From Candidatus Desulfarcum epimagneticum (GTDB lineage: Bacteria > Desulfobacterota > Desulfobacteria > Desulfobacterales > CR-1), in assembly GCA_900659855.1 (NCBI GenBank), contig CAACVI010000051.1, positions 17,781-81,780 of the forward strand: a DNA stretch of 64,000 bases, written 5' to 3'. The notes under the pieces were generated by a model, which ran no database searches, was not told the origin of the DNA, and saw only the letters and a program-made list of their open reading frames with translations. The stretch's first letter is position 1, and each line of letters opens with the position of its first letter. Both the position numbers and the translations under genes were made by a program. This document shows, in pieces, positions 13,340 to 58,472 of this stretch.

Positions 13340-13929
13340 GCCGACGCGGCCGGGTTTTGCCTTGAATATGGCGATGGGATTGATTATAAGACAAATAATT
13401 GTGTGGCATGTTTTTTTGCGGGACATTTTGGATATGGATGGGATAATCCTCATCCATCGGCGCGGCATGGCGTGGATTTCGGCTGTAGGGGCGACCCTTG
13501 CGGTCGCCCTGGTTCCGTCGACCCGGAACGAAATTTTGGAAAAAAATGACCATAAATCCCGGGCACATTCGCCATGATGCCGGATCATATCAATGCGTTT
13601 GGGCCGCCCGTAGGGGCGAAAAAATTTTCGCCCCAATGAATCCACATCCGCATAAAATTGTGTTTGAATGTCGGGGGTTCGCCAGGATGGGCGGTTCTCG
13701 AACCGCCCCTACGGATGCCGGGGCAAAATATTTTTGGGTTGGGAATTTTGGATATGGGTGGGATGAATCCCCATCCATCGGCCCGGCATGGCGTGAATTT
13801 CTGCTGTAGGGGCGGTTCGCGAACCGCCCCCGTTCGGTTTGCCCCGAACGGAATTTTCGGGCAAAATGGAAATGGAACCGCGCCAGGGAAAACATTTCAA
13901 AAACACATCGACCTCATAACGGGAGGGGC
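13340..13929. repeat. REP/BIME cluster, left part (REP-A family hairpins GTAGGGGCG-N-CGCCCC)
   Basis: Hairpins at 13485-13510, 13610-13634, 13689-13712 (inverted, ...CCCCTAC) and 13806-13830. They are embedded in an iterated ~330-bp composite unit. Confidence 0.85.
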
Positions 13930-14499
13930 ATGGCGTTGGCATATCACCCGGAAAAACATCATCGCAGGTCTTTGCGTCTGAAGGCTTATGATTATTCAAA
14001 ATCCGGCGCCTATTTTGTGACAATATGCGCCCGCAATCGGGAATGTCTTTTCGGCGATATCACGGACGGGCGAATGGCACACAGCGATTCGGGCAGAATC
14101 GCATCGGAATCATGGCTGTGGATGGGCGATCAATACGGGCATGTGATTTTGGACGCATGGACCATTATGCCCAATCATATGCACGGCATTGTGTTCATTT
14201 CGGGGGGTAGGGGCGGTTCGCGAACCGCCCCTGTTTCGTCAACCGCCGCGCCTCGTTGCATCTTGCCGGTGAATCGCCGCAAACCGTTGGGGAGATTGAT
14301 CGGATCATTTAAAACCGTTTCAACCAAACGAATCAACCAGATGCGGGACACGCCCGGGGAAAAAATATGGCAGCGCAATTATTACGAACACATTATCCGG
14401 AATGACAAAGAATTGACCCGCGTTCGGGAATATATTGATCAGAATGTGTTAAAATGGGAATGGGACCGTGAAAATCCCCATTCCCGGGCGTTTTCTTGA
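13930..14499 (+). CDS. REP-associated tyrosine transposase (RAYT-1), IS200/IS605 TnpA-like (Y1 HUH)
   Basis: HUH motif MPNHMHGIV and Tyr motif [12 protein letters not shown]. Flanked by a forward REP (13806) and an inverted REP (14537). RBS GGGAGGGG upstream. Confidence 0.85.
   Translation: MALAYHPEKHHRRSLRLKAYDYSKSGAYFVTICARNRECLFGDITDGRMAHSDSGRIASESWLWMGDQYGHVILDAWTIMPNHMHGIVFISGGRGGSRTAPVSSTAAPRCILPVNRRKPLGRLIGSFKTVSTKRINQMRDTPGEKIWQRNYYEHIIRNDKELTRVREYIDQNVLKWEWDRENPHSRAFS
14207..14231 (+). repeat. REP-A hairpin inside the RAYT-1 ORF (in frame)
   Basis: GTAGGGGCGGTTCGCGAACCGCCCC is identical to the free REPs at 13806-13830 and 14653-14677. It is translated as GRGGSRTAP. Confidence 0.9.
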
Positions 14500-14976
14500 A
14501 TGGAATTGTGTTTGAATGGCGGGGGTTTGCCGAGAAGGGCGGTTCACGAACCGCCCCTACGGATGCCGGGGCAAAATGTTTTTGGGTTGGAATTTTTCGA
14601 TATTCGGGCGATAATACCCATCCATCGGCCCGGCATGGCGTGGATTTCGGCTGTAGGGGCGGTTCGCGAACCGCCCCTGTTTGGCCTGCCCCGAACGGAA
14701 TTTTTGAAAAAAAATGACCATAAACCCCAGGCACATTTTCCACGACGCCGAATTATATCCATGCGTTTGGGCCGCCCAAGGGGCGAAAAATTTTTCGCCC
14801 CTGCAATGGTTCCACATCCACATGGGGTTTTTATTTGAAGGTCGGGGTCCGCCGATAGGGGTGTTCACCGAACGCCCCTACGGATGCCGAGGCGGAATGT
14901 TTTTTTGCGGGGATTTTTGAATACTTGGGCGATAACGCCCATCTGTTGGCCCGGCGCGAATTTCGGCCGTAGGTGC
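14500..14976. repeat. REP/BIME cluster, middle part
   Basis: Hairpins at 14537-14560 (inverted), 14653-14677, 14778-14801 and 14857-14881 (inverted). A truncated left REP arm GTAGGTGC lies at 14969-14976. Confidence 0.85.
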
Positions 14977-15135
14977 ATTTTTTGGTTGGAGATATTTTCG
15001 GTTGAGGGTGTGCGGGGATTCAGCCAGTTCCTCACCCCGGATTTCCGCTATTTTGTGTTTTATTTCGTCCAGCCCAGAGTCGGCGGGCAAAAAAACCGTC
15101 CCCATTTCCCCTGAAATTCCATGGGGAGAGATACG

Positions 15136-15435
15136 TCAAGCCAAACGATTTTTCCATTTGTCAGGGCTTTGGGAAGTATGAAAGACACTGTATATGATTA
15201 TTTTCCCATCCATATGCTCGTAAAAGACCGCATATGGAAACCGCCTTGTCAATGCCCGACGGTAGTCTTTGTATATCTTGGCGTAAAGCCCGGGATTGCG
15301 GCAAATGGTCTGAACAACGGTATCCACACAGGTTAGAAAATCTTCACCCAAACCATGCCTGCGATCTTCATACCAACTGTATGCCTCATCAAGGTCCCGC
15401 AACGCCTCTGGAGCGATGATCGGCTCAGCGATCAT
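15136..15435 (-). CDS. ParE/RelE-family type II toxin
   Basis: 99 aa. EALRDLDEAYSWYEDRRHGLGEDF...RRFPYAVFYEHMDGKIIIYSVFH is typical of ParE/RelE plasmid-stabilisation toxins. It overlaps the upstream antitoxin gene by 11 nt. Confidence 0.8.
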   Translation of the reverse strand: MIAEPIIAPEALRDLDEAYSWYEDRRHGLGEDFLTCVDTVVQTICRNPGLYAKIYKDYRRALTRRFPYAVFYEHMDGKIIIYSVFHTSQSPDKWKNRLA

Positions 15436-15649
15436 AGCGGCTTCTGATTTTGCGTTTCACTTCATTCCATGAAAGCCCCGAAGCGGGCCTGCTCATCAGG
15501 TTCATTTTCCTGCGCGTCAACTCTTTCTTTTGCCAATCATGCACGGGAACATCCGATGGCGTCCCGGCCAGATCGTCCCACAGGTCTTCAACCAGCTGCA
15601 GCTTCTCCGGCGGGGTCAGGTCGAATATGGATATGTCATTTGTGTTCAT
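15425..15649 (-). CDS. addiction-module antitoxin (putative addiction module component type)
   Basis: 74 aa. LTPPEKLQLVEDLWDDL...W is the hallmark of the antitoxin family partnered with ParE/RelE toxins. Confidence 0.75.
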   Translation of the reverse strand: MNTNDISIFDLTPPEKLQLVEDLWDDLAGTPSDVPVHDWQKKELTRRKMNLMSRPASGLSWNEVKRKIRSRYDR

Positions 15650-15688
15650 TTGACGTTTCTCCTTTCATTATTCAAGGTCATGACAAAA

Positions 15689-15717
15689 ACAATATCAACG
15701 TCGGCAAAAATTGTCAA
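15689..15717 (-). promoter_or_regulatory. sigma-70-like promoter for the TA cassette (TTGACA-17-TATTGT on minus strand)
   Basis: Reverse complement reads TTGACAatttttgccgacgttgaTATTGT, about 40 nt upstream of the antitoxin ATG. Confidence 0.45.
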
Positions 15718-15754
15718 TTGCCGCGTGAATAAGCGCTGAATGTCTGAAATGTGT

Positions 15755-16100
15755 CCGCCCCTGTCTGGCCTGCCCGGAACGGAATTTTTGGGTAAAATGT
15801 TTTTGGGTTGAAATTTTTCGATATTCGGTCGATAATGCCCATCCATCGGCCCGGCATGGCGTGGATTTCGGCTGTAGGGGCGAAAAATTTTTCGCCCCTA
15901 CAATGGTTCCACATCCACGTGGGATTTTATTTGAAGGTCGGGGTCCGCCGACAGGGGCGTTCGCCGAACGCCCCTACGAATGCCAGGGCAAAATGTTTTT
16001 TGTTGGAAATTTTTGATAGGGCGGGATAATACCCATCCATCGGGTCGGCGCGGGGGTTCGCCGAAAAGGGCGGCCACAGGGGGCCGCCCCTGCAGGCCGT
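15755..16100. repeat. REP/BIME cluster, right part
   Basis: Begins with an orphan right REP arm CCGCCCCTGTCTGGCCTGCCCGGAACGG. Hairpins at 15874-15901 (GTAG on both sides), 15953-15977 (inverted) and 16068-16090. Confidence 0.85.
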
Positions 16101-16117
16101 CGCCCGGACCCCGAAAA

Positions 16118-16171
16118 CCCAACAAACCCAACAAACTCAAAAAACTCAACAAACTCAACAAACTCAAAAAA
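16118..16171 (+). repeat. six tandem 9-nt A/C-only units (CYCAAMAAA) forming the sodN leader
   Basis: cccaacaaa cccaacaaa ctcaaaaaa ctcaacaaa ctcaacaaa ctcaaaaaa, immediately followed by GGAGG (16173-16177) and the ATG at 16184. Confidence 0.9.
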
Positions 16172-16183
16172 AGGAGGACCCCC

Positions 16184-50229: not shown

Positions 50230-50270
50230 CGGCGCCCGGTGTCGCGGACCCGGCATTGTCCGGCGATTTG

Positions 50271-50333
50271 GTGGCGACCGAAATCGCGGGTGGCGACCGA
50301 AATCGAGGGGGGCGACCGGCCGGTCGCCCCTAC
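50271..50333. repeat. REP-B hairpin (inverted, GTAG on minus strand) preceded by two 19-nt half-arm iterations
   Basis: gtggcgaccgaaatcgcgg / gtggcgaccgaaatcgagg / GGGGCGACCGGCCGGTCGCCCCTAC (50309-50333). Confidence 0.85.
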
Positions 50334-50503
50334 ATGCGTATCGCATGGGCGCTGGGATGTTCCCGGTCCAAATCCCAATTTTTCGGATTGTTGATGATGT
50401 GTCGCTGGGTATTGTGAAATTCGGCGTTTCGCCGCATCCGTTTTGGCGTCCCGATTTTAAATCCGCGAATAACGGACCCGATGGTTTTGGGACGCGGACC
50501 CGG
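50330..50503 (-). pseudogene. RAYT C-terminal fragment (internally deleted, lacks the catalytic Tyr segment)
   Basis: PGPRPKTIGSVIRGFK...[16 protein letters not shown] aligns with RAYT-2 [16 protein letters not shown]...[28 protein letters not shown] is missing and there is no HUH half. Bounded on both sides by REP-B hairpins. Confidence 0.8.
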
Positions 50504-50508
50504 CCATT

Positions 50509-50604
50509 GTAGGGGCGACCGGCCGGTCGCCCTTTGTGTCAGGCCGGTCGCCCTTTGTGTCAGGCCGGTCGCCCTTTGTGTCAGGCCGGTCGCCCTTTGT
50601 GTCA
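50509..50604. repeat. REP-B hairpin followed by 4 x 21-bp tandem half-REP array
   Basis: GTAGGGGCGACCGGCCGGTCGCCC, then ggccggtcgccctttgtgtca repeated four times (50521-50604). The last unit contains the hsdR stop codon (50602-50604). Confidence 0.92.
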
Positions 50605-53600
50605 GGCCGCCGCCCACTCTTTACAAAGAACTTCCGCCTGCTCCAGAACGGTTTGGGTCGCTTTTTCCTGTTTGTCCGGGGGGTACCCATATTTACGCAG
50701 AATCCGTTTCACGATCACGCGGATCTGGGCGCGGGCGTTTTTTCGGACAGTCCAGTCTACCGTCACGCTCCGTCGAACCGCTTCGACCAATTCGTGGGCA
50801 ATCGTTTTGAGTGTCTCATCCCCCAGAACTTTAACGGCGCTGTCGTTGACTTCCAGCGCGTCGTAGAAGGCGGTTTCGTCGTCGGTCATGCCGAGATCAT
50901 CGCCCCGCCGTTGAGCCTCGAGCATCTCTTTTGCCAATTTGATTAATTCCTCGATGACCTGCGCGGCCTCAATTGAGCGGTTCCGGTACTTCCGTATGGC
51001 CTTTTCCAGCATCTCCGAAAAGGAGCGCGCCTGAACGACGTTTTTGCGGGAGTTTGTCTTGATTTCATCGTTCAGGAGTTTTCTCAGCAGTTCCACAGCG
51101 AGGTTCCGGTGTGGAAGCCGCCGCGCCTCCTGCAGGAAGTCGTCAGAAAGAATTGAGATATCGGGTTTCTTCAGGCCCGCCGAGGCAAAAATATCGACGA
51201 CCTCTTCAGGCGCCACCGCTCTCGACACCAACTGGCGGATCGCGGTGTCCATCTCTTCAGGGGTTTTTCCCTCGCCTCCTACGGTGTTTTTGGCCAACCC
51301 GGCGCGAACTTCCTGGAAAAATCCCACTTCATCGCGAATCTTCAGGGCCTCTTCATGCGGGACAGCGAGGGCAAATGCCTTCGACAGCGCCGTGACCTCT
51401 GTCAGATATCGCTTTTTTCCATCCACCAGCTGAAGGATATGTTCCATAGCGGCCGCGATGCCGTTGATACGCTTCGCTGGTTCCGCTTTGAGAATTGAGG
51501 GGTAATCGAAACCGTGAAACATGGAAACGAGGACCTCGAACTTTTCCAGCAGCACAGCGACCGCCTCTTCCTGGTTGACTGCGGCCTCGCCGCGACCGCC
51601 CGCTTCGGTATAGTCCGCAAGAGCTCCTTTTAGCTGATCCGCAATGCCGAGATAGTCAACGATCAATCCGCCCGGCTTGTCTTTGAACACCCGGTTGACC
51701 CGGGCTATCGCCTGCATCAGGCCGTGCCCTCGCATCGGCTTATCCACGTACATTGTGTGCAGCGACGGGCAGTCGAATCCGGTCAACCACATATCCCGCA
51801 CGATCACCATCTTCATTGGATCGGCCGGGTCTTTGAACCTCTTGGCCAGGGCCTCGCGTCTCGGCTTGCTGCGAATATGAGGCTGCCATTCAGATCGGTC
51901 CGAGGCGGAGCCGGACATGACGATCTTCAGCGCGCCTTTGCCGTCGTCATCGCTATGCCAACCGGGCCGCAGGGGCGGATTATTATCCGTTCCCACACAG
52001 ATTGCGTTGTAAATATCCACGCATATTCGACGACTCATGCAGATAACCATGGCCTTGCCGTCTAAGGCCTGCAGGCGTCCTTCAAAATGGGTGACGAGAT
52101 CTTCCGCAACGAGGGCGATTCGCTTTTCCGCGCCGACCATCGCTTCAAGGGCGGCCCACCTGGCGCGTAGTTTCTGCTTATCCGCCTCTTCTTCGCCTTC
52201 TGTGATTTCCTCGAATTCAGGATCGATTTTCGGTTTTTCATCTTCTTTCAAATCAACCTTCGCCAGTCTGCCTTCATAAAAAATGGGAACCGTGGCGCCG
52301 TCCTCGACCGCCCGCAGGATGTCGTATCTGTCAATGTAGTCGCCAAAGACAGCGGGCGTGCTGCGGTCATCTCGCTCAATGGGCGTGCCCGTGAATCCTA
52401 TGAAAGAGGCGTTCGGAAGGGCGTCATGCATGTGGCGCGCAAATCCGTCGATGAAGTCGTACTGGCTCCGGTGCGCTTCATCGGCAATGACCACGATATT
52501 GCGCCGGGCGGACAACTCGGGATATCCCAGGCCCCCGGCGTCGGGCAGGAACTTCTGAATCGTCGTGAAAACAACCCCGCCGGCGGGGACCTGAAGCAGC
52601 GCTTTCAAATGCTCCCGGTTTTCAGCCTGAACGGGTGTTTGCCGCAAAAGATCCTGACAGGATGAAAACGTGCCGAAAAGCTGGTCATCCAGATCATTTC
52701 TGTCGGTGATCATCAGCAGCGTGGGGTTTTTCATGGCCGGGTGGCGAATGACCTTTCCGGCGAAAAACGCCATTAACAGACTTTTTCCGCTTCCCTGGGT
52801 ATGCCAGATCACCCCGATTCGACGGTCGTCAAAGTGGTCGGATCCCGAGCCATAAGCGGCCTGCGGATCGCGGACCATAAATGGATTGCGCTCGTCATGC
52901 TCCGGGAAGCGGGCATACAGCATGTTGGGCTCCGCATCGACGCCGCATGCCGACAAGGAGCGTTCAACCGCTTTGTTCACGGCATGGAACTGGTGATAGG
53001 CCGCCGCTTTTTTGGAGATAACGGCCCCGTCGTCGTCAAACACGATGAAATTCAACACAAGGTCGAGGAAACGCCGCTTTTCGAAGACTCCCCTCAGCAG
53101 TGTTTCAAGTTCCGCAGAGCCTTTCAGGGCGACTTCTTTGCCGTCAATCGCGCGCCATGGCATGAAGCGGTCCCAGCCGCTTGTGAGCGTTCCGATTCGG
53201 GCTTTCAGGCCGTCGGAAATGACAAGCATCTCGTTATGGATGAAGAGGCCGGAAATATCGCTTTTGTACGTCTGAAGCTGATTAAAGGCGTGACGAATGG
53301 TCGCCTTTTCATTCGTCGGATTTTTGAGTTCGATCACGCCCAGGGGCAGTCCATTGACAAAAACCACCATATCGGGCCGCCGGGTTCTGCGATCCTCGAT
53401 GACGGTAAATTGATTGACGACGAGCCAATCATTGTTCTCCAGCTTTTCAAGATCAAGCGGCCATACCTTGTCGTGGACCTCTCCGTCCTGACGCATATAG
53501 GAGATATCCACACCATCGGTCAGCATTCGATGAAAACGCCGGTTGTTCTCGATCAGGCTCGGCGAATCGGCCCGCGCTATTTTCCGGACTGCCTCTTCAA

Positions 53601-53799
53601 TGGAATCCGGCGGGATGTCCGGGTTGATGTTCTCCAGGGCGGTTTGAAGCCTTCCGACCAAAACGACCTGATCGTAATCGTCGCGTTCCCGCGCCGGGCT
53701 GTCCGGGCTGATGTCCGGGCCGAAGGCCGTGGCCCAGCCCAGGGAGGAAAACCAGTCAAGGGCGGTTTGTTCCAGTGTGTTTTCGTTGATTTGGGTCAT
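50602..53799 (-). CDS. hsdR: type I restriction enzyme R subunit
   Basis: 1065 aa. N-terminal nuclease region and SF2 motifs (TQGSGKS, DEAH box ADEAHRSQ). Confidence 0.95.
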
Positions 53800-54434
53800 G
53801 GCGCGGCGTCGTATGAAACAGAGGGTTCATGTGTCGCATGGGCGTCGGGATTTTCCCGGTCCAAATTCCAGTTTTTCGGATTGTTGATGATGTATCGCCG
53901 GATGCGGTTTAATTCGTTTTCGTTTCGGATGATGTGTTCGTAATAATTGCGCTGCCATAGTTTGCCGGGGGTGTTTCGGATTTGATTCACGCGTTTTGCG
54001 GCGGCCGATTTAAAACCGGCCAACAGCGCCCCTATGGATTTGGGGCGCGGACCCGGCGTTGCGGGAATGACCGGCGATTTGGGGAGGACCGGTATTGCGG
54101 GGGCGACCGGAATTGCGGGGGCGAATGTTGATTTGGGGGCGACCGGCCGGTCGCCCCTACCAGGACCATTGATCATGATGATTCCGTGAATGTGATTTGG
54201 CATGACCACCCATTCATCCAGTTCGATTTCATCCCGAATTTCACCGGATTTGACCCATTCGTCCGCGACAATTTCCCCGGCCTTATTCAGCGCCATGTTC
54301 CCGTCCGTGATTTCGCCGAACAGGCATTCCCGGCGGCGGGCGCAGACGGTGAGGAAATAGGCCCCGGCCTGTGAATAATCGTGTCCTTTCAGGCGGATCG
54401 ACCGGCGGTGATGGATATCGGGATTGTATTTCAT
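53796..54434 (-). CDS. REP-associated tyrosine transposase paralog (RAYT-2) embedded in the type I R-M operon
   Basis: [12 protein letters not shown] and Tyr motif [16 protein letters not shown] stop/start overlaps with hsdS (54431-54434) and hsdR (53796-53799). Confidence 0.88.
54136..54160 (-). repeat. REP-B hairpin inside the RAYT-2 ORF (in frame)
   Basis: The coding strand reads GGT AGG GGC GAC CGG CCG GTC GCC CCC, translated as GRGDRPVAP. Three 18-nt half-arm iterations (54081-54134) encode the Pro-rich APAIPV repeats. Confidence 0.9.
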
Positions 54435-55642
54435 ATCCCGGCCTCTTTGATAAATTTCTTGGCATCCGGGACCCGCAGTTCGCCGGAAATGAGTTTGGGG
54501 AGAAGGGTGTCCCGGAGGGTTTTGAGTATTCCGTTTTCATTAGTGTTTCTATCAACTTGTTCATCGAAGGCGAATGTGATTTTTTCGAATTCGGCAATCA
54601 AATTTTCACTGGAAGAAAGCCAACGCAACCCCTCAAACTGTTTCTTATTGATGGCCCCAAATACTGTTCCTTCCGCCTCGAACCGAGCGAATCTATCGCT
54701 CAGAGTATGCATTGCATAGTATGTGTAAGAACGGCTACCTGACTTGTGGCGAATTCTGGAGACACCTCTTCCAACGCAGCATTGTTCCATAGCCATGTTG
54801 ATATCTCCAACTGGCGCGCGGACGCTGACTAAAGTGTCTCCATGATCGGCAAGTCGCTGTGGCGCCGTGCAATAGACCCTATTGGATGGATATCTAAAAC
54901 CAAAATCGCGACGTCCCTGAAAGAAGGGAAGTCCTTTTCCTGTTTCGTTATAGGTTTTCCCAGGTGGAGACTGGCCCATTGTCAGGTTAAAGTTAGAGGC
55001 AATAGTTGAGGGATTCCATCCCTTTGGAATCTCTTCCATTTCCGATTCCTCGAAACTGTCGGGAAAGAGCGAGGCGACCTCATCCGGCAAGCCCGTCGGG
55101 CGGCCTTCAGCTTTGGCGCGCGTCGGTTCGAAATCCACAAACCAGGACTTGAAGATAGCTCGGGCAGTGGCTTCCAGCGTCTGGTTCATCCGGCGGTTTA
55201 ATTCGATTTTGTCGTCGAGCGAGCCGAGGATGTGGGCTATGGTCTTTTGTTCAAATATGTTGGGTATCTCAATTTTTAATTCATGCACCGCATTTCGATT
55301 AAGACCAGGAACAGCGCTGTCTGCATTCATGTGTTCCAAATCAATTGATTTTAGTAAGTAATAAGTATAATTTAAGTCTCTGTTTTTATTTGATTTAACA
55401 TAAAATGATGTATCAATTGGCCAAAAAGGAGTTGGAGAATAATGAACGGCTCCAACGGTGCCTTTTCTTCCAACGATAATACCAGCATCATCTACTAAGG
55501 GTGTATCGTGAACTCCGACCAGACCGTTAGAACCATAAACATTAAATTTTCCTTCTGCGTTGCGTTTTTTTTGTGGAAGGCTTTTCCCATAAGCAAATGG
55601 GCAGAATTGTCCAATGGTTGTTACTCTCCATTCACTCCCCAT
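54431..55642 (-). CDS. hsdS: type I restriction enzyme specificity subunit
   Basis: Two target-recognition domains separated by conserved helices ([17 protein letters not shown]... and [14 protein letters not shown]). AT-richer than its neighbours. Start MGSEWRV overlaps the hsdM stop by 11 nt. Confidence 0.9.
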
Positions 55643-57203
55643 AACCCAAAACCTCCAAATTCCTCTTAATGGCGGCTTCGAGCCGGTGAGATTGAGCGAA
55701 CTGCTCGCGCAGCGTCGTCGAGAGTTCGGCCATCTTTTTTTCGAATGGAACGCCGTCGTCCTCGATTGCAGCCGCCCCCACATAACGGCCCGGGGTCAGG
55801 ACATAGCCGTGTTCTTTGATTTCGTCGGCGCTGACGCTCTTGCAAAAGCCGGGCGCGTCCTTGTATTCGCCGGCGTCTTTCTCGCCCCGCCAGGCATGGT
55901 AGGTGGCGGCGATCTTGTCGATTTCTTCCTCAGAAAAATTTTTGTGTGTTCGATCAATGAGGGCGCCGAGTTTGCGCGCATCAATAAAAAGGGTGTGGCC
56001 GCGCCTTTCGCGTAGGGGCGACCGGCCGGTCGCCCCCACCCCGTTCTTCTTGTTCCGGGTCATAAACCAGAGGCACACCGGAATCTGCGTCGTGTAAAAG
56101 AGCTGGCCGGGCAAGGCGATCATGCAATCCACCAAATCCGCCTCGATGATGTTCTTTCGGATTTCTCCTTCGCTTTTGGCATTGGTGGACATGGATCCGT
56201 TTGCCATGACGAAACCGGCGACGCCGGCGGGAGCCAGATGATGGATGAAATGCTGAATCCAGGCATAGTTGGCGTTTTTCACCGGCGGGACGCCGTATTT
56301 CCAGCGGACGTCCTCACGCAGGCGTTCGCCGCCCCAGTCGCTCATGTTAAAGGGCGGATTGGCGAGGATGAAATCGGCGCGGAGGTCTTTGTGCCGGTCG
56401 TTGTGGAAACTGTCCGCATGCAGGCCGCCCAGGTCGGCGTCCAGCCCTCTGATGGCCATGTTCATCATGGCCAGCCGCCAGGTGGTGGAATTGGACTCCT
56501 GACCATAAATGGCGATGTCGCCCAGGCGTCCGCCGCGTTGTTCCACAAAACGCTCGCTCTGAACGAACATGCCACCCGAGCCGCAACACGGGTCATACAC
56601 GCGGCCCTTATAGGGCTCGATCATTCTGACAAGCAGTTTGACCACGCATTGAGGCGTGTAGAACTCGCCGCCGCCTTTGCCTTCCGCTGTGGCGAAGCGA
56701 CCAAGGAAATACTCGTACACGCGGCCCAGAATATCTTTTGACCTGGCTTCATCATCCCCGAGACCGATCTTGCTGATGATATCGATAAGCTCGCCCAACC
56801 GGTGTTTGTCCAGAGAAGGGCGCGCATAATCCTTGGGAAGAACGCCTTTAAGCGTTGGGTTCTCTTTTTCAATGGCCACCATCGCATCATCAACAAGTTT
56901 GCCGATGGTCGGCTGTCTGGCGTTGTCCTTCAGCGCCTTCCAGCGGGCCTCTCCCGGCACCCAGAAGATGTTGGCCGCCGCGTATTCGTCCCGGTCTTCC
57001 GGGTCGGTGTATTCCGTATCTTTCGTGGCCTCCAGGCGCTTGTGTTTGGCCTGGAAAGCGTCTGAGATGTATTTCAGAAAAATTAAACCGAGAACCACAT
57101 GTTTGTATTCGGAGGCGTCCATATGTCCTCTGAGCTTGTCCGCAACCGTCCACATCTGGTTCTCAAAGCCGAGATTGGCGCCGTTTCCTTTTTTTTTCGA
57201 CAT
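55632..57203 (-). CDS. hsdM: type I restriction enzyme methyltransferase subunit
   Basis: HsdM N-domain, motif [12 protein letters not shown] and motif [10 protein letters not shown]. Confidence 0.95.
56012..56036 (+). repeat. REP-B hairpin inside the hsdM ORF (opposite orientation, in frame)
   Basis: GTAGGGGCGACCGGCCGGTCGCCCC on the plus strand. Read on the minus strand as ...[13 protein letters not shown]... between TRNKK and [11 protein letters not shown]. Confidence 0.9.
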
Positions 57204-57346
57204 GTGTTCCTTTCATGTATTTTGACATCCGACATGGCCGCTTTTAAACCGCATTCCATATTAAATTTAAATATTTATGAAATGGAACATTATCAAAAAA
57301 ACATGGAATGTCAATCATTTCCCTGTTTTTTCCATAAACGGGCGCA

Positions 57347-57395
57347 GGGCGACCGGCCGGTCGCCCCTACCAAGGGCCATTGATGATGATTTCAT
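57347..57395 (-). repeat. REP-B hairpin plus about 25 nt of RAYT HUH-side remnant
   Basis: The minus strand reads aatcatcatcaatggcccttgGTAGGGGCGACCGGCCGGTCGCCC. Compare the RAYT-2 coding strand atcatcatgatcaatggtcctgGTAGGGGCGACC. Confidence 0.7.
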
Positions 57396-57791
57396 TTCAC
57401 CGAACCGAGATTCCCGGTCGCGCGCGAATGGCGCTGAAATACGTTCTGTTTCTTTTTCCCTCGACCAGACGCCCCGGGCTGTGCTATGAATTCCCAAAAG
57501 GTTTCAGGCATTTTTTTAAATTGTTTTTGATGTCCGAAAGACTTCCGCAGTTACCAGCGCCGGGAGGCGGCGAAGTTTTTAAAAAAAGGCCGCCGACACG
57601 GCGCGAAAGGCAAAAAAGACGGAGGAGTGGAACAGGTATATGAAAGATTTGAGAAAGCGCCATTCCCGGAAAATTCGCCTGATGGAGGTCCTGGACGCTC
57701 TGGAGGGCAAAACGATTCTGGAAACAAAAATTTAGTTTACTGATGATTGATGATAAAAAAGATAAACCCGTAAAAAAAAGAGGAGAACAAA

Positions 57792-58076
57792 ATGGCAAAG
57801 GCGTCGGCCAGACACATTCTGGTGAAAACCCAAGATCAGTGCGAAGAGATTAAAAAAGACATCGAGGGCGGGTCCGATTTCGCTGAAATGGCCCGGCTTC
57901 ATTCCCAATGCCCTTCGGGGAAGCGGGGCGGCGGAGATTTGGGGGAATTTTCCCCGGGTCAGATGGTTCAGGAATTCGACACCGTGGTTTTTTCAGGCGA
58001 GCTGGGAAAAATTCACGGCCCGGTCCAGACCCAGTTCGGATACCACCTCATTGAGATCACAAACCGGACGGATTAA
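57792..58076 (+). CDS. ppiC: parvulin-type peptidyl-prolyl isomerase
   Basis: 94 aa. ASARHILVKT...CPSGKRGGGDLGEFSPGQMVQEFD...GYHLIE. Confidence 0.9.
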   Translation: MAKASARHILVKTQDQCEEIKKDIEGGSDFAEMARLHSQCPSGKRGGGDLGEFSPGQMVQEFDTVVFSGELGKIHGPVQTQFGYHLIEITNRTD

Positions 58077-58451
58077 ATGAAAAAAGGAGTCCGAAAAATA
58101 CCCGGACCGGCCATTATCGAGGCCGCGGGAACGCCGCCCAAGCGCATTGAGGAATACATCGGAAGGGTGAATTCCGGGGACCGGGAGGTGAGCGTGGCCC
58201 GGATGGTCAGCCCGGCGGGGTGGACCGAGCCGGCCCAGCGGCCTGAGTTCACGGAATACACCGTGGTCCTCAAGGGGGTTTTAAAGGCGGTTTTTTCAGA
58301 CAGGGAAGTGGAGATCAGGGCCGGCCAGGCCCTGGTTGTGGAAGCGGGGCGGCGGGTTCAGTACAGCTCCCCCCATAAGGGGGGGGCCGAGTATATCGCC
58401 GTTTGTCTGCCGGCTTTTTCCCCGGAGACCGTCGGCCGGGACCCTGGGTAG
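58077..58451 (+). CDS. cupin-domain protein
   Basis: 124 aa with a beta-rich pattern (EYTVVLKGVLKAVF...EVEIRAGQALVVEAG). The stop TAG is the TAG of a REP GTAG. Confidence 0.6.
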   Translation: MKKGVRKIPGPAIIEAAGTPPKRIEEYIGRVNSGDREVSVARMVSPAGWTEPAQRPEFTEYTVVLKGVLKAVFSDREVEIRAGQALVVEAGRRVQYSSPHKGGAEYIAVCLPAFSPETVGRDPG

Positions 58452-58472
58452 GGGCGACCGGCCGGTCGCCCC
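58448..58472 (+). repeat. REP-B hairpin between convergent genes
   Basis: GTAGGGGCGACCGGCCGGTCGCCCC. Confidence 0.9.

Follow-up and report, generated by a model that had tools for sequence, protein, structure and literature searches.

The window analysed here is a 64-kb stretch (64,000 nt) of the genome of Candidatus Desulfarcum epimagneticum (GenBank assembly GCA_900659855.1, contig CAACVI010000051.1, positions 17,781 to 81,780). Within it, a gene resembling those for REP (repetitive extragenic palindromic)-associated tyrosine transposases (RAYTs), referred to as RAYT-2, lies inside a type I restriction-modification (R-M) operon, between the genes for the specificity subunit (hsdS) and the restriction subunit (hsdR). 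The open reading frames (ORFs) of the window were listed, their junctions were read straight off the sequence and domains were assigned with Pfam and NCBIfam. The operon consists of the following genes, with positions counted from the first nucleotide of the window:

hsdM, 55632-57203, minus strand: type I m6A methyltransferase subunit of 523 aa, with Pfam HsdM_N and N6_Mtase domains and an in-frame REP-hairpin insert.
hsdS, 54431-55642, minus strand: specificity subunit of 403 aa, Pfam Methylase_S; its stop overlaps the RAYT-2 start (ATGA).
RAYT-2, 53796-54434, minus strand: 212 aa, by homology a RAYT-type HUH/Y1 single-stranded DNA (ssDNA) nuclease-ligase, the HUH motif being formed by H81 and H83.
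hsdR, 50602-53799, minus strand: restriction/translocase subunit of 1065 aa; its start overlaps the RAYT-2 stop (ATGA).

The operon encodes a complete type I system, comprising HsdM, an HsdS with a Methylase_S match and two target recognition domains, and an HsdR with an HSDR_N nuclease, an SF2 motor and a C-terminal domain (Pfam HSDR_N, SWI2_SNF2, T1R_D3-like and T1RH-like_C; TIGR00348 at 592 bits, above cutoff). The initial annotation of this DNA had described four same-strand ORFs joined by overlaps of 11 nt, ATGA and ATGA, and both the ORF list and the junction sequences bear this out. The hsdM and hsdS genes share 11 nt at 55632-55642 (ATGGGGAGTGA), hsdS ends in ...GGG ATA TGA with the RAYT-2 ATG lying within it (shared ATGA, 54431-54434), and the RAYT-2/hsdR junction reads ...GCG CCA TGA CCC (shared ATGA, 53796-53799). 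The mechanically called hsdS ORF extends to 55783; the start at 55642 (MGSEW...) agrees with homologues at two related loci (L004, L009) and with the gene call at a third (L001). Because the 4-nt ATGA is the commonest type of overlap in compact operons, these overlaps are not improbable per se, and what goes beyond chance is that the whole arrangement recurs in other genomes. A crude scan of the operon strand found no promoter-like site across the operon, which is weak evidence, and no terminator-like site at the RAYT-2 junctions, the scan being too crude to prove co-transcription. The exact RAYT-2 protein occurs on one other public contig only, where the arrangement is identical.

By sequence and predicted fold, RAYT-2 is an intact RAYT-like HUH/Y1 enzyme. 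It passes the Pfam family Y1_Tnp (PF01797) with 26.2 bits against a cutoff of 23; it is RAYT-like but outside the curated equivalog, since its score of 67.1 bits is under the cutoff of 80 for NCBIfam REP_Tyr_transpos (NF047646), which RAYT-1, the second RAYT of the window, also misses with 60.7 bits. When a profile of 16 RAYT-2 homologues was compared with the PDB, the sole match was Escherichia coli TnpA_REP (4ER8), in an alignment that pairs the RAYT-2 HUH strand VVMPNHIHG and the helix ...YIINNP with their counterparts and places the HUH motif opposite LPEHMH. That motif (P79-N80-H81-I82-H83) is intact, with H81 invariant and H83 nearly so among 70 homologues. Equally invariant is Y181, in RRYIINNP, which aligns with the tyrosine of DYIYINP in TnpA_REP, a residue reported to be the catalytic one of that enzyme. 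The catalytic tyrosine of RAYT-2, judged from these alignments, is probably Y181 and not the YY of WQRNYYEH. Across the 70 homologues, 13 residues are invariant and approximately 50 nearly invariant, the HUH motif and Y181 among them, and the earlier statement that both motifs are intact is upheld by this alignment as well as by that to 4ER8. An AlphaFold2 model built on the homologue alignment has a pLDDT of 80.8, with 115 core residues at 90 or above, and a Foldseek search with it again places 4ER8 at the top (E = 2e-7, target-normalised TM-score 0.62), followed by the TnpA proteins of ISDra2, IS608 and IS200. The HUH strand is separated from the helix that follows by a disordered linker (residues 90-132), which is encoded by a hairpin and low-complexity DNA.

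The arrangement recurs widely. Two sets of loci were assembled, one anchored on HsdR (80 loci with HsdR relatives that are 60-86 % identical, from species representatives of many phyla) and the other on RAYT-2 itself (its 80 closest metagenomic relatives, including 46 loci of at least 3 kb). In the first set, the hsdS-hsdR slot holds a RAYT homologue in 12 of the 80 loci, or 9 of the 62 with at least 700 nt upstream, examples coming from Atribacter, Syntrophales, Gammaproteobacteria, Chloroflexota, Nitrospira and Limisphaera. The hsdS/RAYT junction that recurs is a 4-nt overlap of the hsdS stop and the RAYT start, as ATGA, GTGA or TTGA, while at the 3' end the RAYT either stops at the hsdR ATGA or runs 13 nt into hsdR, with a tail ...DEPWRI* over MAHLTE. 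In the RAYT-anchored set, type I genes adjoin the RAYT in 14 loci and type IIG/Eco57I-like methyltransferase-nucleases or a DISARM-like methylase plus helicase do so in 5 more; among the loci of at least 3 kb, 17 of 46 are R-M-adjacent. Within type I operons the order is mostly hsdS-RAYT-hsdR, with hsdM-RAYT-hsdS (L087, L092) and hsdR-RAYT-hsdM (L140) also seen. Four of the nine closest long-contig homologues are likewise arranged as hsdS-RAYT-hsdR (P0005, P0006, P0020, P0033), and in one of the nine the RAYT is followed by an hsdS-like vestige. A tblastn search of the flanks of RAYT loci that have no adjacent R-M gene found no type I genes. Since well under 1 % of a bacterial genome consists of type I genes, the enrichment of RAYTs beside R-M genes is very strong, measured against a baseline that is general knowledge and not a matched control. 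In all, the arrangement and its 4-nt hsdS/RAYT overlap recur in no fewer than 20 independent loci, spread over many phyla, so that the synteny check proposed in the initial annotation, for hsdS-rayT-hsdR with its overlaps kept, turns out positive across phyla at that junction. The HsdR family is 80-86 % identical at the amino acid level between metagenome-assembled genomes of Deltaproteobacteria, Acidobacteriota, Atribacterota, Sumerlaeota and Synergistaceae (L002-L030), which suggests a recent horizontal transfer of its operon across phyla. Full-text searches, whose coverage ended short of a 2011 survey of 'defense islands' that might mention COG1943, found no literature linking RAYT, IS200-like or COG1943 genes with type I operons, and the association is apparently undescribed. 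As a side observation, the RAYT of Desulforhabdus amnigena (tail EAWMI*) is followed by an ORF start like the HsdS N-terminus (MKLASYPEYKDSRQLLLDEIPAHWDL...) and then by a Na/Ca exchanger gene (L164, 7690-7800); the HsdS-like start is probably the vestige of a lost R-M operon.

That the gap between hsdS and hsdR serves as an accessory slot, as stated in the initial annotation, is confirmed by related operons, which carry varied defence-type genes there, namely PrrC-like AAA_13, RhuM, SIR2 with HerA, KwaB-like, Abi_C and AbiEii. The same annotation had argued that a selfish insertion would not be expected to create perfect coupling at both borders, and this argument fails. Members of the RAYT-2 clade sit between nuoA and nuoB (L179, 5582-7296) and between pyk and eno (L124, 199-3314), each with a 4-nt overlap, as well as between cobU and cobT (L147, 5410-7690), the junctions in these nuo, pyk-eno and cob operons being 0-4 nt. 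Others lie downstream of a MiaB-like radical-SAM gene (L111, L120) or an FGE-sulfatase gene (L103, L151), at two independent loci each, or are tightly coupled beside HTH or methyltransferase genes. Most clade genes start with NTGA, and approximately 22 overlap a real upstream ORF by 4 nt, in mixed contexts. Every occupant of the slot is coupled, PrrC-like AAA_13 and two proteins of 1191 and 297 aa among them; in L002 (75-125), which is the closest of the RAYT-less relatives and has an HsdR that is 86 % identical, the gap is bridged by a 13-codon mini-ORF, MTELLSISEEEGV, with ATGA at both ends, which suggests that a translational relay to hsdR is obligatory. Read most simply, the translation of hsdR depends on the ORF before it, so that anything surviving in the slot must keep the coupling, and tight coupling does not prove domestication of RAYT-2. 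The idea that ATGA, present at both borders here and at three other loci (L104, L157, L164), is a RAYT insertion target or a 4-bp duplication was also entertained; these borders are not attributable to the RAYT, as the other occupants and the L002 mini-ORF share them.

The DNA around RAYT-2 is studded with a hairpin of its own type. The full hairpin consists of GTAG plus GGGGCGACCGGCCGGTCGCCCC, with the perfect-palindrome core GGCGACCGGCCGGTCGCC (GGCGACCGGCCGGTCGCCC-type), and GTAGGGGCGACCGGCCGGTCGCCCC is the candidate substrate of RAYT-2. The core occurs in six perfect copies in the window, all at 50311-58470 and within 8 kb of RAYT-2, where chance would give 0.02, and each of the six has GTAG on one side only, the classical REP signature. 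These copies and the features associated with them are as follows:

54136-54157: hairpin inside RAYT-2, GTAG on the minus strand, encoding GRGDRPVAP in the disordered linker; DNA fold of -11.7 kcal/mol.
56015-56036: hairpin in frame inside hsdM, encoding GATGRSPL.
57347-57366: hairpin upstream of hsdM, approximately 145 nt before the hsdM start, with a flank of approximately 30 nt that resembles the RAYT sequence preceding the internal hairpin.
58451-58472: hairpin after a cupin-like ORF (58077-58451); the TAG of its GTAG is the stop codon of that ORF.
50521-50604: half-hairpin array in which GGCCGGTCGCCCTTTGTGTCA is repeated four times in tandem (21 nt per unit); it overlaps the hsdR stop (50602-50604) and continues into the hairpin at 50513-50532.
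50513-50532: hairpin downstream of hsdR, heading a RAYT remnant.
50342-50503, minus strand: decayed C-terminal half of a RAYT gene (tblastn 1e-13; profile match 1e-10).
50309-50330: hairpin paired with the copy at 50513 and inverted relative to it, followed by a second, linker-like RAYT remnant (50240-50308).

The peptide RGDRPVAP, encoded by the hairpin within RAYT-2, is conserved in homologues, and the hsdM hairpin coincides with a 7-aa insert (VGATGRS) that is missing from HsdM homologues of up to 86 % identity (e.g. L005, at 86 %, and L006). The remnant at 50342-50503 is 84 % identical at the DNA level to the 3' end of RAYT-2 over 86 nt and has an internal deletion that took the WQRNYYEH region. 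The RAYT-like flank upstream of hsdM, together with the hairpin and RAYT C-terminal half downstream of hsdR, raised the idea of an older RAYT gene whose linker hairpin had received the whole R-M operon as an insertion; this was rejected, as a profile search of 57204-57800 found no homology to the N-terminal half beyond the hairpin. The earlier remark that RAYT-2 is not bracketed by its own inverted REP pair holds literally at the gene borders, which are coding overlaps free of REPs and REPINs (REP doublets), with the nearest outside copies 1.6 kb before the start (in hsdM) and 3.3 kb past the stop; it misses the cognate hairpins inside RAYT-2, inside hsdM and around the operon.

Several smaller features of these repeats may be recorded. 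The side bearing GTAG alternates strictly (minus, plus, minus, plus, minus, plus at 50311, 50514, 54138, 56017, 57348 and 58453), so that the hairpins form three inverted pairs with spacings of 203, 1879 and 1105 nt, the first pair alone being REPIN-sized. The C-terminus of the cupin-like ORF has seemingly been set by REP insertion, and a half-hairpin array similar to that at the hsdR stop lies upstream of hsdR in another locus (L007, 1-100).

RAYT-1 (13930-14499, plus strand) is 49 % identical to RAYT-2 and has its own hairpin type, GGGGCGGTTCGCGAACCGCCCC, with one copy inside the gene and four in REPIN-like repeats around it, so the two RAYTs of the window differ in hairpin type, each type clustering at the locus of its RAYT. 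The RAYT-1 region (13400-16100) has the classical layout, with REPIN-like composite repeats of approximately 320 nt that contain GGGGCGGTTCGCGAACCGCCCC on both sides of the gene. Its repeat units reach to approximately 16050, and a 9-nt tandem array follows at 16105-16176.

The same traits extend across the clade. A perfect, GC-rich GGGC...GCCC hairpin with a stem of at least 8 bp lies inside the gene's own ORF in 76 of 86 clade genes (the L082-L167 set), its position being constant in 69 of these, within the disordered linker that separates the HUH strand from the helix after it. We know of no description of such an intragenic RAYT hairpin, which may be a self-recognition or control site. The type of hairpin tracks the RAYT clade across loci, and REP-like hairpins are 20 times denser in HsdR loci with a RAYT than in those without (0.152 vs 0.0076 per kb). 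In-frame hairpins that add 7-10 residues to R-M proteins are found in hsdM (besides the window at 56015-56036, L006 4822-4843, L125 4557-4576 and L108 265-284), in hsdS (L009 2367-2417, L033 662-683) and in hsdR (L018 3458-3477, L033 2610-2631). Those in hsdS are located in the conserved central and C-terminal regions, on which the spacing of the target recognition domains depends, and such inserts might alter specificity. In Desulfococcus multivorans (CP015381; L162, 7001-9910), a RAYT carrying five hairpins in frame precedes six tandem, hairpin-bounded partial copies of itself. In each copy the HUH region is fused at hairpins to the C-terminal tail, and successive copies overlap by 13 nt (ATGGATGATATGA). 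Patterns of this sort point to active hairpin-mediated rearrangement around clade genes.

As for the history of the clade, a neighbour-joining tree of 85 members, which is star-like and weak (approximately 180 columns of divergent sequence), scatters the R-M-linked RAYTs, and the idea that they form a dedicated clade was set aside on this indicative result. Co-divergence of the RAYT with HsdR is likewise unsupported, the correlation of their identities being low (Mantel r = 0.24, p = 0.07), and pairs of loci with HsdR proteins 92 and 86 % identical have RAYTs only 65 and 56 % identical (L018/L154 and L032/L045, respectively). Slot RAYTs are frameshifted pseudogenes in two loci (L006, L044), and the gene is missing altogether from the close relatives L002 and L005. 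Clade genes are not multi-copy, match clusters being found on one to three contigs as a rule, and plasmids in PLSDB yielded only four weak matches, one of which was inspected and is not near R-M genes.

The reading favoured here, with moderate confidence, takes RAYT-2 to be a RAYT/REP lodger that lacks a promoter, depends on coupling within the operon for its expression, acts on its own hairpins, and is retained and spread with a horizontally mobile R-M cassette. Its starting point is what is observed, i.e. a RAYT gene on the same strand as hsdMSR that overlaps the hsdS stop and the hsdR start. Transcription would come from the hsdM promoter and translation from termination-reinitiation at the first ATGA, with ribosomes passing on to hsdR at the second. 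Going by its homology to TnpA_REP, the enzyme would bind the GTAG-flanked 22-nt hairpin in ssDNA, nick it and rejoin it. Such activity may have seeded the hairpin copies and hairpin-bounded rearrangements that are seen nearby, in the gene's own linker, the hsdM insert, the operon flanks, the half-hairpin array and the RAYT remnant. Coupling on both sides would be imposed by the operon, with hsdR translation depending on the upstream ORF; the slot would tolerate cargo, and an R-M cassette that resists loss would lend its lodger stability and horizontal spread, which is the reason proposed for the frequent presence of the clade in R-M operons. This account requires no direct role of RAYT-2 in restriction. 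A functional link to restriction, as suggested in the initial annotation, is possible, and the alternative offered there, in which the RAYT is stabilised by the R-M locus, agrees better with the data.

Several points weigh against RAYT-2 as a mere passenger. Hitch-hiking alone may not explain an adjacency to R-M genes of approximately 37-45 %, and the enrichment spans type IIG and DISARM-like systems as well as three positions within type I operons. Most slot RAYTs retain all catalytic residues over deep divergence, which suggests that something selects for the RAYT protein. The proposed spreading of hairpins by RAYT-2 is inferred from their co-location. The clade is also nearly absent from plasmids and is not multi-copy, unlike a typical selfish insertion sequence.

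Among the alternatives, a role in defence survives best and is nevertheless unlikely. Here the RAYT would be co-expressed with the restriction complex and aid immunity, perhaps by cleaving hairpins in single-stranded intermediates (of phages, plasmids or replication) that are beyond the reach of a type I enzyme dependent on double-stranded DNA, or by acting as a back-up effector like PrrC. Its recurrence in a slot that otherwise holds defence genes, the strong enrichment beside type I, type IIG and DISARM-like systems, the conserved catalytic residues and the conservation of the junctions across phyla all speak for such a role, yet the same clade sits in nuo, glycolysis and cobalamin operons, and its R-M-linked members form no distinct clade. 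Searches of PADLOC v2 gave no significant match, RAYT-2 reaching only a marginal NsnC hit (E = 0.021, 12 bits) and RAYT-1 none. RAYTs are specific for their own REP, and pseudogenes and RAYT-less relatives occur. The cognate hairpin is present in only 10 stretches among 2.9 million viral contigs, so there is no obvious phage target; as a test of phage targeting, these 10 stretches are uninformative. In a broader form that is similarly doubtful, the large clade of RAYT-like hairpin nucleases would work together with m6A restriction systems (type I, type IIG and DISARM-like) in a partnership not recognised before, either as an effector on ssDNA or hairpins to which the restriction enzyme is blind or as a slot-cassette recombinase that writes hairpin peptides into Hsd subunits; in the recombinase version, the hairpin inside the RAYT ORF would serve as a docking or control site.

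Distinctly improbable is a related proposal in which the RAYT is an exchanger, mobiliser or diversifier of cassettes, with hairpins as the recombination sites used to load the slot, move the R-M unit or insert peptides into Hsd proteins. It would account for the hairpins on both flanks of the operon in the window, for the position of the RAYT always at one edge when the slot is shared (L006, L009, L018, L046, L154), for the in-frame hairpins in hsdM (window, L006, L125), in conserved regions of hsdS (L009, L033) and in hsdR (L018, L033), and for the hairpin-bounded tandem partial duplications of D. multivorans. However, most other long loci are without operon-flanking hairpins (L045, L046, L166-type), there is no split RAYT half upstream of hsdM, the cassette borders do not coincide with hairpins, and homologous recombination in the conserved 3' end of hsdS and 5' end of hsdR could shuffle the slot without any RAYT.

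A shade less probable again is a regulatory function, whereby the coupled ORF and its stable GC hairpin would lower or delay HsdR relative to HsdM and HsdS and so help the R-M system to establish itself in new hosts; this could work through a reduced efficiency of coupling or through the hairpin as an mRNA stability barrier, like REPs in E. coli operons. RAYT-2 is placed exactly between the modification and restriction genes, the GC stem of its hairpin is 9 bp long (-11.7 kcal/mol as DNA), the corresponding gap in the RAYT-less L002 is spanned by a mini-ORF, and pseudogenised RAYTs with hairpins persist in L006 and L044. An intact enzyme is not needed for such regulation, yet the catalytic residues are conserved; moreover, the RAYT lies elsewhere between hsdM and hsdS or after hsdR (L087, L092, L140), and the hairpin, having no following T-run, is not an intrinsic terminator. 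Finally, a one-off recent insertion in this genome with coupling by chance, for which the single other contig with the exact protein and the absence of a RAYT beside the closest HsdR relative (L002) might be cited, is so improbable as to be already refuted by the 20 or more independent loci of many phyla that share the arrangement and its 4-nt hsdS/RAYT overlap.

RAYTs are a long-standing puzzle, i.e. domesticated-looking transposases whose host function is not known, and their lodging in restriction operons offers a concrete, testable setting. The finding adds to the type I slot a very common occupant that current defence catalogues do not list and that is not to be counted as a defence gene until tested. 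The intragenic hairpin (76 of 86 genes) and the in-frame inserts in HsdM, HsdS and HsdR bear on how REP/RAYT systems control and spread themselves, and hairpin inserts explain the widespread peptides of the 'GDRPVAP / ATGRSPL' type in predicted proteins. If RAYT-2 is only a lodger, it neatly illustrates how a selfish gene can survive by keeping the translational coupling of its host operon intact.

Compared with known systems, RAYT-2 is closest to the TnpA_REP/REP-BIME (bacterial interspersed mosaic element) system of E. coli (4ER8), which has the same HUH/Y1 fold, is the best match in both sequence and fold, and aligns at the HUH motif and at the tyrosine of the ...YI.NP helix. Also shared are GC-rich hairpins with GTAG on one side, a hairpin type particular to each RAYT and clustered at its gene, and a low gene copy number. 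Unlike TnpA_REP, RAYT-2 falls under the NCBIfam equivalog cutoff and is embedded and coupled in an operon, not standing alone between REPs; it also differs in having an intragenic hairpin (76 of 86 clade genes have one), hairpins in frame in neighbouring genes and a clade tied to R-M operons. The TnpA proteins of the IS200/IS605 family (IS608, ISDra2) share the fold and chemistry, recognise subterminal hairpins, act on single strands and make seamless insertions without long target duplications. RAYT-2, in contrast, lacks a TnpB, multiple identical copies and hairpins at the left and right ends of the gene, its clade is rare on plasmids and its intragenic hairpin has no counterpart in IS200/IS605 insertion sequences; it is not an IS200/IS605 element. 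With PrrC and the other genes of EcoprrI-type hsdS-hsdR slots, RAYT-2 shares the slot and the same-strand, coupled layout; unlike them it has no ATPase or anticodon-nuclease domain and no significant PADLOC match, and its family also occupies housekeeping operons. Rickettsia palindromic elements are selfish palindromes that lie in frame in coding genes and leave those genes intact, as do the palindromes in hsdM and RAYT-2, whereas the units here are shorter pieces of approximately 21-28 nt that bear the REP signature of GTAG plus hairpin and have a cognate Y1 enzyme alongside.

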